A stretch of 28,182 nt of DNA, counting the filler, from Candidatus Babeliales bacterium (GTDB lineage Bacteria; Babelota; Babeliae; Babelales; JABCYS01), in assembly GCA_016929235.1 (NCBI GenBank). It is 2 parts of 2 records of this genome, joined end to end, with 100 filler letters (N's around TTAATTAATTAA, not from the genome) between each part and the next. Parts side by side here need not be neighbours in the genome. Positions count along the whole stretch, not along the records: positions 14,087 to 28,182 come from JAFGJD010000003.1; 1 more part is not named here. One strand, given 5' to 3'. The number at the start of each line of letters is the position of its first letter. Positions within the stretch are counted from its first letter, which is position 1. Under the pieces are notes generated by a model that saw only the letters and a program-made list of their open reading frames with translations, was not told where the DNA came from and ran no database searches. A program made the position numbers and the translations under genes. Positions 1,594 to 27,680 of this stretch are shown piece after piece.

Positions 1594-2994
1594 CTAAAAA
1601 TTGACTGCAACTGTCCCATACAAACCACCTATTCGAGGTGCATTGCGATTGCTTGAAAGTGGAGCTTGCCATAAGATGCCCGCGTTAACGTTTGGTGAAA
1701 TGTCATAATGGAGTGAGGAGAGAAAATAACGTTGATTCCACTTGGATTGCTTTTCCAGCATGGAGGGGATAAAGCCGAGGGTTGAATCTGCTACACGGAT
1801 AGTATCAGCCTGGTGGTTAACCTGGGCATACTGGATGAAGAATGATAGGCGACGCAGGAAGTGGCGTGCATGAATTGTTGCTAAGAAATGCCAGTTGGCG
1901 CCTGGGCTTATGCAGGCTGTGGTTGTGCATGGGAAGATGCCACTTTGTTCTTTATGGTTGGGTATGCGGAGGTTGCATACCGTTCTATCCATGAATACGG
2001 TTCCCCCTGCCTCAAATCCAATCTCTACTCGATCATCAAAGTCTAGGGTAAATCCAGTGTTGATTCCGAATGCGTGATGTCCATTATTTCCATGTGAGAC
2101 AGCAAACTGAATGCTTGGATCCTTTTCTGGTCCCGTTGCGATGGTTCCAATGAGCTGTATAAATGGCATAAAAAGAAACTGAGACCAGCCGTTACGGTCT
2201 TGGTTAACCTCAACTGCATGTCGCCAGAAAAGCTGCAGTCGCATGTCTTCAAAACTAGTCTTATGGAAGTTATTGATGTTCAGCCCTATTTCACTGGCAA
2301 TATCGTGTATCTTGTCTTCACTGGTAAGGAGTCGATAGACATTGCGTTGATTAGTGCCTTCGCAGGTTGCTTCGCCACATCCAGTACCGTTGTTGTCCCT
2401 AAATGCTGTAACTGTGAACTGAAGATCTGAGACGCCAAACTGGGCCTTGAATCCAAGATCCTCAAGCAGCATGATGGCTGTCTCGAAGCGTACGCCATAG
2501 CGGCGGTATTCTGCCGGCACTTCAACCTGTCCAAAATTTGATCCCGTATTACAAATGACGGCAGTGTAGGTGAAGGCTGTATCATCATTAAAATAGAGCG
2601 GAGTGTCGGTTCCCGTTGGGTTACAGGCATATTCTTGAGCTGCGGCAGCCGCTAGGTTAGTGCCTAGAGACGAGCTAGTGGGGCAGGTTGTATAGGTGAG
2701 TGCGAGCATGTTCCATAGACCGTGGATGTTACCAAGTTGTATTTCTTCTTGGTCAATATCTTTGGCTCGTTTTGAGCGTTGGCCGAATGGCGTAATGGTG
2801 AAATTGAAACGTTCATCTTTTTGTTCAGATTTTAGCCCACGCATGATGTCTTTTCCAAAATCGTAGAGGAATTCATGTGGGTTGGCTGTTGAGTAGATCG
2901 GAAGTGCATCGAAATAATTATTTGATGTCATGCCATGAATCAAGGATGTGCTGGCAAGAAATCCTATTGCACCTGCACAAATCTTGTACTTCAT
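1594..2994 (-). CDS. Secreted Cys-rich protein, probable outer-membrane beta-barrel (paralogue of 26233-27654)
   Basis: 466 aa with an N-terminal signal peptide, many alternating polar/hydrophobic strands, and C-terminal LYGTVAVNF (beta-signal-like terminal Phe). Shares the GTI(A/P)TG......FA...G...(H)..FG motif with the paralogue. Confidence 0.7.
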   Translation of the reverse strand: MKYKICAGAIGFLASTSLIHGMTSNNYFDALPIYSTANPHEFLYDFGKDIMRGLKSEQKDERFNFTITPFGQRSKRAKDIDQEEIQLGNIHGLWNMLALTYTTCPTSSSLGTNLAAAAAQEYACNPTGTDTPLYFNDDTAFTYTAVICNTGSNFGQVEVPAEYRRYGVRFETAIMLLEDLGFKAQFGVSDLQFTVTAFRDNNGTGCGEATCEGTNQRNVYRLLTSEDKIHDIASEIGLNINNFHKTSFEDMRLQLFWRHAVEVNQDRNGWSQFLFMPFIQLIGTIATGPEKDPSIQFAVSHGNNGHHAFGINTGFTLDFDDRVEIGFEAGGTVFMDRTVCNLRIPNHKEQSGIFPCTTTACISPGANWHFLATIHARHFLRRLSFFIQYAQVNHQADTIRVADSTLGFIPSMLEKQSKWNQRYFLSSLHYDISPNVNAGILWQAPLSSNRNAPRIGGLYGTVAVNF

Positions 2995-3144
2995 TACATC
3001 CCTTTTTGCCGTAACACCCTACTTTGGTTCCTTTGATCAAGATATACCACTCCAGAGATTCACCAGTCAATTAAAAGGTTGCTGGGTTGTGGGTTTGTTG
3101 TGATCGCTTTACACTTGAGCTAATTGTTACCCGGGGAAGGCTCT

Positions 3145-3666
3145 ATGAGACAGTGGATTGTATGTGTAATGCTGAGTATGACATCCTGCGTGAGTGGGCA
3201 TGAGTCATCAGATAATGACAGGCATGAAGATTCTCGTGCGGTTGGTGGGGGCAGTTCTTCACCTCAACAGAAAGCAGCGCTAGTAGTTCCTGGTATCCTA
3301 ATTGGAGCTGGAATCACATTGCTTGGGACTCGACATAAAGGTCTGGAAAAACCTTCAAGATGTGACTCGGCGAAGCGGCCGCTTCGTTTGCAGCTTGAGC
3401 CTGCGGATGACTTTGTGAGGCGGTTGGACCCTGATTTTGTGTTGTGGTTTGCTAAGAACATGAGCGAATTTGCGAACAATAATACGTTGGTTAAGTGGTT
3501 GGCAGAGAAGCCTGAGGGCGAGCGATTCGGGGCTCAACGAGTAATCGGTGATGAGATTGAACCAGCGTTTCAAGTTGCTCGAAACAAGGGATCTTCATGT
3601 GGGCCGTATCAGTATCAAATGGTTGAAGTCATGATGTTCGGGTTGTTGCATCCAACATCTAGATAG
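3145..3666 (+). CDS. Hypothetical exported/membrane protein
   Basis: ATG 3145 follows GGGGAAGG. Signal-like N-terminus, acidic stretch, then a Gly-rich hydrophobic helix (VVPGILIGAGITLLG) and basic residues. Confidence 0.6.
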   Translation: MRQWIVCVMLSMTSCVSGHESSDNDRHEDSRAVGGGSSSPQQKAALVVPGILIGAGITLLGTRHKGLEKPSRCDSAKRPLRLQLEPADDFVRRLDPDFVLWFAKNMSEFANNNTLVKWLAEKPEGERFGAQRVIGDEIEPAFQVARNKGSSCGPYQYQMVEVMMFGLLHPTSR

Positions 3667-3773: not shown

Positions 3774-4376
3774 ATGATGGTGAAATTAAAAGGCATCTAT
3801 TTCGTGAGTGTAATACTATGGGGGTTCAATCTTCTTGCGGGAACTGATACTACAGATGATGTAATGAATTGTCAGGATGAAACAAGTGTTAGTTCTGATC
3901 ACTTGTCATGGTCATGGTATGTAGCTGGTGGCGCAGTTGTGTTCGGTTCGGCACTATTTGGATATCGCATGTATTCTAAGAAGCAGAAGAAGTGTAAGCA
4001 ATCTTTTGTTCCCTTCTACGGGGGGGAGGCATTCGATGTGGAAATAGGTGCAATACTTAATGCAGAGGCGGCAAAGGCGGAGGCAGAGGAGAGGGAAGCC
4101 CAGGAGCGATTTCCAGCAAGTGAAGTGCACAGAAAAGAATTGTGGCAAGAATTGCAAGGGGAAGGGCTTTTTCCCTTTAATTGGATACGTCATTCCGATG
4201 TAACGGGACGAGAATGTTCCCAAGCGGCGTTTGTTATTCGCCGTAGCCTTGGTTTTCTAGACCAAATTGGGCATATAAGATGGCTTATAAAGCAGCCAGT
4301 CCCTGAAGGACGTTCGACGCTTGGTGTCGTGGTAGAGTACTTGCGGGGTGAAGGCTACAAGGAGCTTCAAGATTAG
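3774..4376 (+). CDS. Hypothetical exported/membrane protein
   Basis: 200-aa ORF with GAGGG SD-like sequence, signal peptide, acidic stretch, TM helix WYVAGGAVVFGSALFGY, and KKQKK. Confidence 0.65.
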   Translation: MMVKLKGIYFVSVILWGFNLLAGTDTTDDVMNCQDETSVSSDHLSWSWYVAGGAVVFGSALFGYRMYSKKQKKCKQSFVPFYGGEAFDVEIGAILNAEAAKAEAEEREAQERFPASEVHRKELWQELQGEGLFPFNWIRHSDVTGRECSQAAFVIRRSLGFLDQIGHIRWLIKQPVPEGRSTLGVVVEYLRGEGYKELQD

Positions 4377-15221: not shown

Positions 15222-15285
15222 TAGCTCCGTGTCATATTGAACCTTGCATCAGACAAAAATAAATGTTCGTAGGTGGAGAAATACA

Positions 15286-16701
15286 ATGGCCACAATTGTA
15301 AAACAGGCGGCTCAGAGTAAAAATATTGTCCAAGCACATCGTTCCTACGAAGATATTATTCATTTTCTCGATACAAATTGGCACACAAAAACATCTCATT
15401 CACTCGACGCAATCAGACAACTAGACGCTCTTTTGGATTACCCGTCCCGAGCACAACACACTATTCTCATCAGTGGTACAAACGGAAAAAGTTTAACCGC
15501 ACATTTTCTCACATCATTGTTGCATGAAGAAGGCATCACCGCTGGCATATATACGGCACCACATATACACACATATAATGAGCGGCTTTCTTTGCGCAAC
15601 GAACATATCAGTAATGAACTGTTTACACAGTTTGGCAATAGCATTTTGACTATCGCAGAACACGAAAAGATTAATCTTTCATCTTCAGAATTGCTCACGC
15701 TTATGGCCCTCTTATATTGCAAGCATGCTGGCGTCGATGTCGCTGTACTAGAGGTTGCAACATACGATGCCGACCCAACCTTTGTATGTACACCACAAAT
15801 CATGGCAATTACACGCCTCACCGAAACTAGTGAGATCCACCAACAACAAACCGCGCAGATAATGCAGACCCTCACACGCGCGCTTTCAAAAGATAGTTGG
15901 GTTGTCTCTGCCGATCAAAGCAAATTAAATCTGCAAATCATGGCTGACTGTATACAGCAGCATGGCTGCAACTGGGCAATGCCTATCAGAAAACTAACCG
16001 CACTACCATATCCGTTTGAGCAACTTCATGGACGTGCAGCTGCGCTCGCAGAACGCATTGCACATCTATATGTCACCAATTTCGTACTGCCACATGAGAC
16101 AATTGTAAACGAAAGTTTATTGGTAAAGCCTAAGGGGCATCGTGGGCGTCCAACACTAGAAGCAAAAAGGAACTCAGAGTTAAATCCACGTCGCTCACTC
16201 ACCAACTTCTGGCAAGAAACAGCAACACCACCAACAGGTCGATTTCAAATCATCGAACAAGAGCATCCAACCGTTCTTCTTGATAATGCAAGTAATCTTG
16301 ATGCGCTTAAAAATCTTCTTCTTGGCATTCGTTTACTCCACTATCAACGCCCCATCAAAGGTCTAGCATTAATCATGGGATGCCATGCAGACACGCTGGA
16401 ACGCGAAGAATTTCTTAAAGTCATTCGCTACTTCTTTAAAAAAACAAGCGGTCATATCATCTTCTACCCGGTAGCACCAGAAACACGCGATTCACGCGGA
16501 ACAAAAATTTCATGGAACGTTGAACAGATAACAAACTCCGTAAAAAACATGAAAATGAAAGCCCGCGCTTCAAAAAGCTTTGAAGACGCTTTTTCATATG
16601 CAATAAAACATGCGGATGAACGGAATGGATTGATCGTTATTTCTGGCTCTAATATGGCTCTGCGCGAATATTGGAACTATAGAACCGCACGCGACGCGTA
16701 A
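15286..16701 (+). CDS. Divergent FolC/Mur-ligase-family protein
   Basis: ISGTNGKS P-loop, GIYTAPHIHTYNER, VDVAVLEV, GRFQII, VLLDNASN and IVISGS. ATG 15286 follows AGGTGGAG. Several FolC motifs are degenerate. Confidence 0.8.
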   Translation: MATIVKQAAQSKNIVQAHRSYEDIIHFLDTNWHTKTSHSLDAIRQLDALLDYPSRAQHTILISGTNGKSLTAHFLTSLLHEEGITAGIYTAPHIHTYNERLSLRNEHISNELFTQFGNSILTIAEHEKINLSSSELLTLMALLYCKHAGVDVAVLEVATYDADPTFVCTPQIMAITRLTETSEIHQQQTAQIMQTLTRALSKDSWVVSADQSKLNLQIMADCIQQHGCNWAMPIRKLTALPYPFEQLHGRAAALAERIAHLYVTNFVLPHETIVNESLLVKPKGHRGRPTLEAKRNSELNPRRSLTNFWQETATPPTGRFQIIEQEHPTVLLDNASNLDALKNLLLGIRLLHYQRPIKGLALIMGCHADTLEREEFLKVIRYFFKKTSGHIIFYPVAPETRDSRGTKISWNVEQITNSVKNMKMKARASKSFEDAFSYAIKHADERNGLIVISGSNMALREYWNYRTARDA

Positions 16702-16704
16702 CTC

Positions 16705-16932
16705 ATGATATACCCTCTCTTCATCTCGAGTGTCAGCGGCATCGTTTATGGTTGGTGGTATACACGTATCTTTATTGCTAGACACAAGAGATTTACTATC
16801 GGAGCATTAATCCCAATCTTATTGCTTGCCGGGATCTTATACCTTTTATTGCTCTCTGGAACGAAGAATCTTATACTCTTTGCTGTAACGTTTTTTATGA
16901 CCTTTTGGGTAATAATCTTAAAGAAGGCATAG
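16705..16932 (+). CDS. Small hydrophobic protein, AtpI-like by position
   Basis: 75 aa with three hydrophobic segments, directly upstream of atpB. Confidence 0.55.
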   Translation: MIYPLFISSVSGIVYGWWYTRIFIARHKRFTIGALIPILLLAGILYLLLLSGTKNLILFAVTFFMTFWVIILKKA

Positions 16933-16939
16933 GAATGCG

Positions 16940-17689
16940 ATGGAAGGTCTTCAGATCCTAACATATAATCGCTGGTACCCACTTAGATTTCTTGGGTTTA
17001 CCGATCCTTTTTGGAGCGTACACGAAGAGACCATCCTGGCAACATGGATCGTGCTTGGCATCTTACTATTCACAAGTATCCTTATTCATATAGGCGTTAA
17101 AAAGAATCATCCTTATCTACGTTACCTAGCTATGGAGTACGTACGTTTCTTCAAAGGAACCTACACTGAAGCGACCGGGCTATATAACTATAACAATATC
17201 GTTTTTTTGATTGCGTTATTTAGCTTTATCATGCTATGTAACATTGCCGCCGCATTCATTCCGTGGATTGAAGAGCCTACAAGCGATGTCAATACAACGC
17301 TTGCATTTGGCATTACATCATTCTTATATGTGCAAGGCGCAAGTATTACAGCTATCGGCATTCGAGCCTATGTTAAAGAGTACTTCACTCCGGTCTTTCT
17401 TTTTCCGCTACATGTCGTTGGTAAACTGGTTACGATTGTTTCACTATCATTTCGTTTATTCGGTAACATTTTTGGAGGCTCTGTCATTACAAAGATTTAT
17501 AATGCCATGAAGCTTAATTCCTTTATTGGTGAAATGATCGGTATGATGATCGGAACAAACCTTGTAGTAACTTACTTTTTTGGTATCTTCGAGGGGCTCA
17601 TTCAGGCATATGTCTTTTGTACGCTTACATTGACGTATCTTGCTATGGGCGTACAGCACAATGATGAATCCTCCGGAGAGACTGTATGA
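16940..17689 (+). CDS. atpB: F0 ATP synthase subunit a
   Basis: PTSDVNTT, SLSFRLFGNIFGG (essential Arg) and EGLIQAYVF.TLT..Y. Confidence 0.95.
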   Translation: MEGLQILTYNRWYPLRFLGFTDPFWSVHEETILATWIVLGILLFTSILIHIGVKKNHPYLRYLAMEYVRFFKGTYTEATGLYNYNNIVFLIALFSFIMLCNIAAAFIPWIEEPTSDVNTTLAFGITSFLYVQGASITAIGIRAYVKEYFTPVFLFPLHVVGKLVTIVSLSFRLFGNIFGGSVITKIYNAMKLNSFIGEMIGMMIGTNLVVTYFFGIFEGLIQAYVFCTLTLTYLAMGVQHNDESSGETV

Positions 17690-18645
17690 CATATGCCCCC
17701 TACCTGTTAACGGTTCTTGTTATTGTTCTACCTCTTCTTTTTGCAGTCATCGGAACATCGCTTGGTCAGGGATTCAGTGCCTACTGGAGTCTCAGAGCAA
17801 CCAATATTCAGCCGGCATCACAACCAGAGATTGCACGCATTAATCTACTTGGATCAGCGCTCCTGGAAAGCTCTCTTGTTCTTGGTTTACTTCCAAGCAT
17901 CTTTCTTATCTTTGATCAAACTAAGACCACTCCAGAGTTTTATCCAAGTATCGCGCGACTAGGAATTTTATTTAGTTCAGGACTTGTCTGCATGATTGCT
18001 CCGGCTGTTTCATGGCGCAGCATCAAAAAAGCTTGTCTTGCTGCGTCACGACAACCTTTTTTTGGCACCAAAATTTTTCAGCTTCTTCTGCTTACCATGG
18101 CACTATTACAAACACCGGTCTTTTTGAGTTTTATGATTACGTTCTTCGCTCGCCACCGAGCACTTACAATTACAACATTAGGCGAATGTTTGCAGATACT
18201 AGCTAGTGGAATAGCGGTAGGGCTCGGTAGCATCGGCCCTATGATTGGACTCGCACATGTTATTAGAAGTGCCATTCAAGGAGTTGGAAGAAATCGTTCT
18301 GCACTTGAAGGACTACGTACATTTACCTTTTTGAGTGAGGGTCTTTTGGGCACACCAATCGCATTCTCATTTATTACAGCATTACTTATCCTGCTACGCA
18401 CCACTACAAATCCATCACTACTACAAGGCATATTATTTATGAGTGCAGCGTTAACCATTGGACTTGGAACGATGCTACCTGGCATTGCATCGGGGCGCGT
18501 AGCATCAACTGCATGTAAAGAAATTGCGCATGATCCAGCAAATCTTACACCAATCCGTACCGCTAGCTTCTTAAGCCAAATCTTTCTAGAATCTCTTACG
18601 GTATATGCATTTTTAGTTACACTAATTCTGCTTTTTTTTGCATGA
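17686..18645 (+). CDS. atpE: F0 ATP synthase subunit c, four tandem fused hairpins
   Basis: 319 aa = 4 x ~80 aa. Loops IQP43, RQP124, RNR204 and HDP284; residue +18 is E61, Q142, G222 and E302. Gly-rich inner helices; ATGA overlap with atpB. Confidence 0.9.
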   Translation: MTYAPYLLTVLVIVLPLLFAVIGTSLGQGFSAYWSLRATNIQPASQPEIARINLLGSALLESSLVLGLLPSIFLIFDQTKTTPEFYPSIARLGILFSSGLVCMIAPAVSWRSIKKACLAASRQPFFGTKIFQLLLLTMALLQTPVFLSFMITFFARHRALTITTLGECLQILASGIAVGLGSIGPMIGLAHVIRSAIQGVGRNRSALEGLRTFTFLSEGLLGTPIAFSFITALLILLRTTTNPSLLQGILFMSAALTIGLGTMLPGIASGRVASTACKEIAHDPANLTPIRTASFLSQIFLESLTVYAFLVTLILLFFA

Positions 18646-26232: not shown

Positions 26233-27654
26233 CTAGAATGCTACGCTAATATTACCCCAAAGCCCCCATTGTTCCAGCGCTTTATGTGCCGCAAATTCAT
26301 ATGAACCACCAAAACCAACCTTCCCCCAATCATTGTCATATGCAAAAGCACCATAAATCTTGTGACTCCATGAAGATGGGTGTGCGCCAGAACAGAGATT
26401 AAGATCAGAAGTTTGAATCGTGGTAAAACTTGCATCACTTGTAGCAACATTGGTACCAGCTGCCGACATAGTAATATTGGCAGTGCCTGCCGATACTGCA
26501 CTACCTGCCAATGCTCCCGCCATATCAAAAATACCAACGCCATTATCAGTAATAGTACAACAACTGCCAGTCGTTATTTTTTCTGACTGACGCCACCAAA
26601 AAACATAACCCGTCTCAAAATTCCAATGCGTATGCCAGGCAATATGAAGTGCATTCCAAAAATCAATCGTACTCCGTGGTGCAATATCAGCAGAACATGT
26701 GAGATAGTTAATAGCAGGTTGTGAATCTAAACGAGATGCATTGGTAACAACTAATAAGTAACGTGACCAATCGCCATTATTTGTCAGATCAAATGAGCGC
26801 ATTTCGTGGTGAGAGAATACGTATCGATATTTTAGATCACTCATGAATGACATCCTCACACGATCCCTCTTGAGCAGCTCTACATCACCATAAGCCCCTA
26901 GGCCAAAGCTCCCGTTCTTACTGCCAACTACTGGTGCAAACATGTTAACAGCGCTGCGATCTCTTCCAGTTGGAATCGTTCCTACAAGGTAGAATCCCAA
27001 GTGACCGTTATCACGCTTGACTGGTGTGTAACCAATCTTACATTGGATATCATCAAGCCCAACTTTATCACGTTCAACTGAATCAATCCGCCCATAATTT
27101 GGACCATATGTTGCATCGGTATTTTTGAAATAGTTGGTCAGTGTTTCAAAACCACTTGTCGTTCCTTGATTGATAATTGATGTTTCTGAAAGATTTGCAT
27201 CGTGTTCCACACCGATCAGCGATGTCGTAACATTTGCCCAAAACTTTTTCCAAGATGCATACCATGCAGGAACAATACCCCATACATGCCGCTCAGGAAA
27301 AAGTGTTAGGGTCGAACTATAGCTAGCTCCCGATGCAGCAATTGTCTGAAACCACAATGATCCAAGATCCCCTGTACCATTCTCTCTCACTGCTAGTGAG
27401 CATTTATTATCCTTGAGAAAATAACGCGCAAGCTCTTCTTCATTCGTAGAGTTTTGGTAGACAATATTGGCGGTAATATCTGAGTAAAATTTATCAGTAT
27501 CAACATCTTCACGATACATATGTTGAAAATAATTCAATCCCAGCTCAAACGTTGGATCAGTTGTAATCTGCCGAGGCACAAAGAAGCTTGAACTTGCGCC
27601 CATCGCTTGAATTGCACACAATCCTACAATGTATCCTGTGTTTTTTATCCTCAT
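26233..27654 (-). CDS. Secreted protein, probable outer-membrane beta-barrel (paralogue of 1594-2994)
   Basis: Signal peptide, amphipathic strands, GLDDIQCKIGY...VGTIPTG...MFAPVVG, and C-terminal GGSYEF...WGLWGNISVAF. ATG 27654 follows AAGGGA. Confidence 0.72.
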   Translation of the reverse strand: MRIKNTGYIVGLCAIQAMGASSSFFVPRQITTDPTFELGLNYFQHMYREDVDTDKFYSDITANIVYQNSTNEEELARYFLKDNKCSLAVRENGTGDLGSLWFQTIAASGASYSSTLTLFPERHVWGIVPAWYASWKKFWANVTTSLIGVEHDANLSETSIINQGTTSGFETLTNYFKNTDATYGPNYGRIDSVERDKVGLDDIQCKIGYTPVKRDNGHLGFYLVGTIPTGRDRSAVNMFAPVVGSKNGSFGLGAYGDVELLKRDRVRMSFMSDLKYRYVFSHHEMRSFDLTNNGDWSRYLLVVTNASRLDSQPAINYLTCSADIAPRSTIDFWNALHIAWHTHWNFETGYVFWWRQSEKITTGSCCTITDNGVGIFDMAGALAGSAVSAGTANITMSAAGTNVATSDASFTTIQTSDLNLCSGAHPSSWSHKIYGAFAYDNDWGKVGFGGSYEFAAHKALEQWGLWGNISVAF

Positions 27655-27680
27655 TTCTTTTCCCTTTTTTATAGACACAA

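Follow-up and report, generated by a model that had tools for sequence, protein, structure and literature searches.

A conserved four-hairpin F-type subunit c in Babelota and its probable role as an insert in a hybrid rotor ring

Gene context and fold of the four-hairpin subunit c

The window analysed here, a stretch of 28,182 nucleotides (filler included) joined from two records of the Candidatus Babeliales assembly GCA_016929235.1, contains a short series of F-type rotor genes. The gene coding for subunit a (atpB, 16940-17689, + strand; 249 aa; PF00119, E 1e-30), whose product displays the essential arginine motif R-L-F-G-N, is followed by an ORF of 319 aa (17686-18645, +), the start of which overlaps the atpB stop by 4 bases. 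Upstream of atpB, a membrane protein of 75 aa is encoded at 16705-16932 (+). This ORF gave no Pfam or NCBIfam match of its own. It was assigned as AtpI-like, a probable assembly factor of the c-ring, from its match (E 2.5e-13) to a profile of small hydrophobic ORFs located upstream of atpB. Such an ORF was present in 74 of the 91 loci with room for it, and ATP-synt_I produced weak matches to six of twelve of them (E 0.0007-0.066), all below the cut-off. An assignment as the AtpR gene of N-ATPases was ruled out, as no such match was obtained. A divergent Mur-ligase/FolC-like protein is encoded directly upstream of the AtpI-like gene (15244-16701, +). Other ORFs of the window showed no Pfam match, namely 26233-27678 (-), 1594-2994 (-), 3124-3666 (+) and 3774-4376 (+), with 481, 466, 180 and 200 aa, respectively. 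The 481-aa product begins like a signal peptide and ends in Phe, as outer-membrane barrels do.

Pfam analysis of the 319-aa ORF with ATP-synt_C matched four stretches (E 1.1e-21, 77.2 bits for a cut-off of 24). The AlphaFold model, obtained from a 32-row alignment (mean pLDDT 94.8, pTM 0.91), consists of eight long transmembrane helices, the fourth of which is interrupted at residue 142. Profile match and helical hairpin fold place the protein in the F-type subunit c family (PF00137) and confirm the description of four c hairpins given in the earlier note, including E61, Q142, G222 and E302 at the four carboxylate positions.

Hairpin 1 (17707-17916, +; limits taken from the helices of the model) carries Q28, E61 (codon 17866-17868) and the loop residues Q42-P43, and has no Tyr at position +5 from the site. 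According to the residue table it is predicted to form the acceptor half of a Na+ site. Hairpin 2 (17959-18162, +) is without an ion site, has Q142 (codon 18109-18111) followed by Pro at +2, and contains the best conserved loop, R122-Q123-P124. Hairpin 3 (18178-18396, +) displays G222 (codon 18349-18351), which is Glu in most relatives, with Pro at +2 and Phe at +5. Hairpin 4 (18418-18639, +) combines E302 (codon 18589-18591) with S303 and Y307; its carboxylate is not accompanied by a helix-1 Gln, and the hairpin is predicted to be the donor half for the site of the next subunit.

Two changes would be needed to turn the Gly codon 222 into a Glu codon. A public contig spanning 16700-18700 showed zero differences to the window; it may originate from the source sample and is therefore not independent. 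The absence of the hairpin-3 Glu, the long branch of hairpin 1 (2.14 in the hairpin tree described below) and the identity of 29-39% to relatives could indicate that the copy in the window is decaying and is no longer part of the motor, and the Na+ motif of the single-hairpin c of the same genome is eroded too. Such a decay is very improbable, considering that the frame is open and full-length, that all eight family-invariant columns are intact, that the fold was modelled with the high pLDDT given above, and that the identical E-Q-G-E pattern is found in two genomes of another family.

The remaining motor subunits, the host and the spread of the gene

The genome of the window has a size of 809 kb and is 99.27% complete. 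It harbours a separate atpE gene coding for a single-hairpin c of 84 aa, located on a contig other than that of the fused gene; downstream of it lie two b-like ORFs and the genes for delta and alpha. Gamma is encoded elsewhere in the genome, as is beta together with an epsilon-like ORF. Subunit a (PF00119), alpha, beta and gamma gave one match each. Delta passes TIGR01145, the epsilon match (E 3.7e-4) is below the cut-off, a b-like ORF of 120 aa has no family match, and a fifth c match in this genome is weak (E 0.065). Subunits a, b, delta and F1 of the F-type are hence encoded in the same genome as the four-hairpin c. V-type subunit I (PF01496) gave no match in this 99%-complete genome, and the head is of the alpha/beta and not of the A/B type, which sets the enzyme apart from V/A-type ATPases. 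Alpha and beta score above the canonical atpA/atpD cut-offs but below those for N-ATPases (511.7 < 750.5 and 583.2 < 752); with a canonical head and a separate delta, the enzyme is no N-ATPase either. As one subunit a and one F1 are encoded along with two c genes, the two kinds of c would serve one motor, and the genome displays the combination of fused and single c for one F1Fo that is typical of hybrid rotors. A conventional atpE forming most of the ring had been named in the earlier note as one of the observations that would overturn its proposal. The existence of such a gene was established, here and in all 31 genomes of a sample spread over the families; its share of the ring is a matter of the stoichiometry considered below.

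Three ORFs for Tlc nucleotide translocases were identified in the genome, as well as a membrane pyrophosphatase passing both the Na+ model (834.6 > 546) and the H+ model (720.1 > 651.9). The search for respiratory components in this 99%-complete genome yielded no heme-copper oxidase, bd oxidase, Rnf/Nqr or membrane subunit of complex I/Mrp. Across the same 31 genomes, which include that of the window, heme-copper oxidase was detected in 2, bd oxidase and Rnf/Nqr in 0, and a complex I/Mrp membrane subunit in 2. The bacterium is an ATP-importing parasite of protists, in agreement with the intracellular lifestyle presumed earlier. One heme-copper oxidase subunit I is located at a contig start in the family of the window (G126:C5:3-896); it is rare in the sample (2/31) and may be contamination.

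In 201 Babelota genomes, Pfam c matches amounted to five in 182 genomes, four in 17, two in one and six in one, summing to 986 and thus to the reported total. A profile of the four-hairpin family gave two matches per genome in 121 of 121 genomes. The full-length protein was obtained in 120 of them, and in the remaining one the fused match is cut at a contig end. The second profile matches listed (n=29) were all in frames of 83-110 aa. One fused match counted as full-length has an internal stop codon (G056:C12:283470-284411). The layout of one single plus one four-hairpin c gene is phylum-wide in Babelota and present in almost all sampled members, so that the suggestion of a lineage-wide trait held. 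The genomes being related and not independent, these counts and those of the loci represent one conserved trait and not many events. Named homologues came mostly from TM6, Dependentiae, Babeliales or Babelota records, including one of Vermiphilus pyriformis. Other records are titled uncultured bacterium or Pseudomonadota, and one Alteromonas. Four of these oddly titled records were checked and belong to genomes of 0.8-1.1 Mb with the one-plus-four layout too; the non-Babelota titles appear to be mislabels.

The fused c gene is located immediately 3' of atpB in 127 of 131 loci, the others being two contig ends and two unresolved cases. Both genes overlap in 48 of 101 loci and are separated by 20 bases or less in 90 of 101. 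No single c gene was seen in the flanks (1-4 kb) of the 131 four-hairpin loci.

A tree of individual hairpins (82 rows and 78 columns, with random draws of 10 from each Babelota group and of 8 sulfate-reducer-type proteins) separated the four Babelota positions into four groups of their own with supports of 100/99, 100/99, 99/98 and 88/0. Position-specific groups, three of them strongly supported, fit a single origin of the fused gene before the sampled lineages split. A common origin of the Babelota and the sulfate-reducer-type series is not resolved by this tree. In profile comparisons the first, inner and last hairpins of one series pair up with the first, inner and last of the other, and the single c of Babelota scores equal or higher for hairpins 1, 3 and 4. 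The four hairpins share 21-28% identity, and their conservation reaches 35-49% vs 55% for the single c.

Ion-site residues and the coupling ion

Site residues were tabulated for 53 relatives (the 30 best and 20 weakest full-length profile matches and three more, the window's own copy left out). Another 78 loci had been collected with a pattern requiring the hairpin-3 Glu and were excluded from conclusions on carboxylates. Hairpin 1 has Glu in 50 and Asp in 3 relatives, hairpin 2 Gln in 41, Glu in 11 and Leu in 1, hairpin 3 Glu in 50, Gly in 2 and Ser in 1, and hairpin 4 Glu in 26, Asp in 25, Gln in 1 and Gly in 1. Three carboxylates per protein were counted in 41 relatives, four in 9 and two in 3. 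Among 131 full-length representatives, which include the window's copy and at least four non-Babelota-like proteins, 99 have three carboxylates and 24 have four. G222 is therefore an outlier, with Glu at this position in 50 of the 53 relatives and 124 of the 131 representatives. The earlier idea that half of the ion sites are lost does not extend to the phylum, as three or four carboxylates are present in 50 of the 53; two of four is a trait of the window's copy and the two genomes sharing its pattern. The most divergent layout seen was D-E-S-G (L183, genome G110). E218 was considered as a stand-in for the lost Glu and rejected, since 46 of 53 relatives have Glu or Gln at this position, and Glu 222 is also present in nearly all of these.

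The Na+ site spans neighbouring hairpins: one provides the Glu and the helix-1 Gln/Glu, and the preceding one the Ser/Thr and Tyr (bioRxiv 10.64898/2026.10.01.756066). The acceptor half (Glu and Gln) was identified in 47, 0, 12 and 0 of the 53 relatives for hairpins 1 to 4, and the donor half (Thr/Tyr) in 0, 0, 0 and 44. In the fused protein, one half of the Na+ motif is thus found in hairpin 1 and the other in hairpin 4, and just these two outward-facing halves of the site appear to be retained. The inner hairpins share Pro at +2 from the site with 4-6-hairpin proteins of the sulfate-reducer type. From the residue pattern, the carboxylates of hairpins 3 and 4, having no Na+ partners, seem unexplained under a pure Na+ model.

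Single c sequences were scored for Gln/Glu in helix 1 plus E[STQ][STQ]xxY in 30 of the 31 genomes of the family-spread sample; this recount replaced a set of 28 sequences (alignment A3) composed mostly of top Pfam scorers. The motif was full in 14, near-full in 5 and absent in 11. All four genomes of the window's family have a single c without the Na+ motif and without the Tyr. In the genome of the window the +2 Ser/Thr and the Tyr are lost, so the ion used there may be H+. Na+ coupling seems to be the ancestral state, which has been eroded in places. The helix-1 Gln is missing from the single c in two of 30 genomes (loci L228 (G007), L229 (G037), L192 and L194). In G007 the fused protein has no hairpin-3 Glu, like the window's copy, and this joint loss possibly reflects a shift from Na+ to H+.

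Shine-Dalgarno strength was the same for single and fused c genes (36 and 106 genes; median of -5.8 kcal/mol each, p 0.70), and GC3 was low in both (0.29 and 0.31) and uninformative. The sequencing runs listed as containing the sequence included none of RNA. In 20 of 36 loci, the gene immediately upstream of the single atpE is one which we take from its sequence to be deoxynucleoside-kinase-like (L014:8631-9353 (-), L017-L046 and L157-L161).

A probable hybrid ring of fused and single c

We consider it likely that the four-hairpin c and the single c form a hybrid ring, the former as an insert, in an ATP-driven pump that was Na+-coupled in origin. Several lines of evidence support the hybrid ring: both c genes are kept throughout along with one a/F1 set; the site polarity is common with that of c1 from Acetobacterium woodii (PDB 4BEM chain J), the best match in both sequence (E 5.9e-23) and fold (E 1.8e-4); and the fused gene is tightly coupled to the one-copy gene of subunit a. 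A complex prediction of the fused c with four single c subunits gave weak support, with a score of 0.40 compared with 0.00 for the best of three controls, a contact agreement between runs of at least 93% and a partner pLDDT of at least 74. The calibration set comprised 157 solved pairs, of which 116 passed the mark, and 215 mismatched pairs, of which 2 passed; those passing with 0.60 or below were 18 solved pairs and the 2 mismatched ones. The resemblance to c-rings of known structure may account for the 0.40.

The insert would be a longer counterpart of A. woodii c1 in a heteromeric F-type c-ring, one copy (possibly two) occupying four hairpin positions and AtpE filling the remainder. Hairpin 1 would give Glu and Gln to a site completed by the Ser/Thr and Tyr of the preceding subunit, and hairpin 4 would give its Ser/Thr and Tyr to the following one. 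No complete Na+ site is predicted within the insert: hairpin 2 would be blank, hairpins 3 and 4 would usually present a bare carboxylate, and that of hairpin 3 would be missing as well in the window's copy. Assuming a ring of 11 hairpins with one insert, 8-10 ions would be transported per turn instead of 11, the window's copy leaving 9 carboxylates. With fewer sites per turn, a larger gradient could be held and fewer ions would be moved per ATP. The enzyme is most likely a pump fed by imported host ATP, a direction already proposed for Babelota from the absent respiratory chain (PMC4776705, PMC6561590). Lifestyle is the reason for preferring this direction, the low number of sites alone not being decisive. 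The argument that few sites force pumping did not survive, given that ATP synthesis starting at about 87-90 mV is reported for an enzyme containing a V-type c subunit (PMC9171764).

Several observations count against the hybrid ring. The polarity equally fits a homo-ring in which the hairpin 4 of one copy donates to the hairpin 1 of its neighbour, the single c gene is absent from all 131 four-hairpin loci, unlike in the acetogens with a hybrid ring, the equal Shine-Dalgarno strength gives no indication of a higher expression of the single c, the Na+ motif is full only in the above-mentioned minority of single c, and the carboxylates of hairpins 3 and 4 are not accounted for by Na+ alone. A ring of the four-hairpin protein alone, as put forward in the earlier note, would transport 6 ions per turn with three copies of the window's protein, and it was weakened by the 84-aa atpE and the single a/F1 set. 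A related reading, in which the four-hairpin protein forms its own 8- or 12-hairpin ring, the single c another, and both rotors are swapped on one a/F1, is unlikely. Head-to-tail self-assembly is permitted by the polarity, the two c genes are adjacent in none of the 131 loci, and R-Q-P is kept in hairpin 2 and rare in the single c; yet swappable rotors should have been lost singly in some genomes of 0.8-1 Mb, where both persist, the hairpins are little alike and less conserved than the single c, and the closest solved case is a mixed ring.

The loop residues may point to a function beyond ion transport. In the 53 relatives, the loop of hairpin 2 has Arg in 53, Gln in 46 and Pro in 53, and that of hairpin 1 has Gln in 53, whereas the single c loop (n=30) has the Arg in 2 and the Gln in 1. 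We take R-Q-P to be the contact motif to gamma and epsilon of F1; a literature search gave no confirmation of this contact. F1 may thus dock preferentially on the fused protein. From here it could be argued that the insert is mainly structural, a fixed sector docking gamma-epsilon or seeding assembly together with AtpI and subunit a, the ion number being a by-product, or even a scaffold absent from the finished ring. Retention of the loop motif in hairpins 1 and 2 next to its erosion in the single c, the close coupling to the AtpI-like and atpB genes, the requirement of the A. woodii hybrid ring for its own AtpI (PMC8904574) and the range of two to four carboxylates among relatives speak for it. 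The carboxylate of hairpin 1 in 53 of 53 relatives and the donor half of hairpin 4 in 44 of 53 suit a working rotor element, and the mainly structural reading is accordingly held to be improbable. Docking as such is compatible with the hybrid ring; only the scaffold form is a true rival.

Since the carboxylates of hairpins 3 and 4 are conserved without Na+ partners, a rotor with two chemistries was also considered for the whole phylum. Complete Na+ sites (single c and hairpin 1) and carboxylate-only sites of the proton type (hairpins 3 and 4) would be combined in one sectored ring, hairpins 1 and 2 fixing the register of the central stalk. This elaboration is speculative, with a low probability of being correct. 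If true, Na+ and H+ would leave the cell together in each ATP-driven turn, the protein sequence would determine their ratio, and lineages would adjust this ratio by losses of single carboxylates, as in the window's copy.

Among known systems, the proposed hybrid ring compares best with those of A. woodii and Clostridium aceticum, where a fused F-type c also follows atpI-atpB and a single-hairpin c is encoded in the same genome. The ends of A. woodii c1 are shared as well, with E-T-S-x-x-F in the first hairpin and Q-T-T-x-x-Y in the last (Glu without Tyr, and donor Thr/Tyr). In contrast, c1 has two hairpins with one site, and the Babelota protein four with two to four carboxylates, usually three. 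Both acetogens carry the c genes in one operon (PMC7911925), unlike Babelota, whose single c belongs to another cluster. The ring composition of A. woodii is reported as 9:1 (PMC9171764, PMC8904574), and A. woodii is an acetogen making ATP, as opposed to an ATP-importing parasite. The design is probably an extension of the hybrid rotor known from this one acetogen group.

The next-best fold matches, Enterococcus hirae K and c/c'/c'' of eukaryotic V-ATPases, also display fused hairpins and lost carboxylates. V/A-type proteolipids differ in having two hairpins in the solved cases, and the partners in Babelota are all F-type, without subunit I; none of the solved rotor chains in the fold-search list exceeds 204 residues. 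Archaeal c subunits can have more than two hairpins per chain (1, 2, 3 or 13, as in Methanopyrus kandleri; bioRxiv 10.64898/2026.10.01.756066, PMC9171764). These belong to A-type enzymes, and the hairpins of Babelota are position-specific. The multi-hairpin c of methanogens consists of near-identical repeats. Near-identical hairpins, unlike those of Babelota, were also found in P0131 (1139 aa, Asgard archaea records), with 12 proton-type hairpins (E-A-L-x-I-Y). P0114 (968 aa, cluster of 12) has 13 detected c hairpins, nearly all with Glu/Gln and E-S-x-A-I-Y, and may represent an entire ring of the bacterial type within a single chain. The presence of Trp at expected Gly positions suggests a TGA=Gly code in P0114, presumably as in Gracilibacteria/Absconditabacteria.

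F-type c proteins with 4-6 hairpins, several named Desulfobacterota or Deltaproteobacteria, were retrieved as P0194-P0308 (best 120 of 3155 matches, E <= 1e-20). Among the matches listed, they share with Babelota the Glu (120/122) and the Phe at +5 (118/122) of the first hairpin, the Tyr of the last hairpin (122/122) and the inner Pro at +2 (338/391). They differ by an inner Gln (379/391 among the matches listed), where the third hairpin of Babelota has Glu and the fourth Asp/Glu, and by a variable number of hairpins, which is fixed at four in Babelota. Most of these best 120 of 3155 have either a single Glu, located in the first hairpin, or a second one in the last hairpin as well. N-ATPases share a Na+-type c motif with many of the relatives and presumably the pumping direction; the canonical alpha/beta, the separate delta and the scattered atp genes found here distinguish the two.

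The open literature covered, to which a review on the distribution of hybrid rotors does not belong, gave no account of F-type c subunits with four hairpins or of the c genes of Babelota. Babel-, Dependentiae and TM6 are absent from the main text of bioRxiv 10.64898/2026.10.01.756066, the supplements of which may list such proteins. The four-hairpin c of Babelota is thus real, conserved and phylum-wide, and apparently undescribed in print.

Hybrid F-type rotors are experimentally known in acetogens, where they are read as an adaptation to ATP synthesis at low energy. Here, a whole phylum of ATP-importing parasites, with genomes of about 1 Mb, retains a version with four hairpins. Cultured members of Babelota exist, and expression of the genes in a laboratory host is feasible. 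With the natural variants carrying two, three and four carboxylates, it could be examined how many silent positions are compatible with a working rotor, how the number of ions sets the pumping force, and whether a fused sector fixes the ring size or the register of the stalk.
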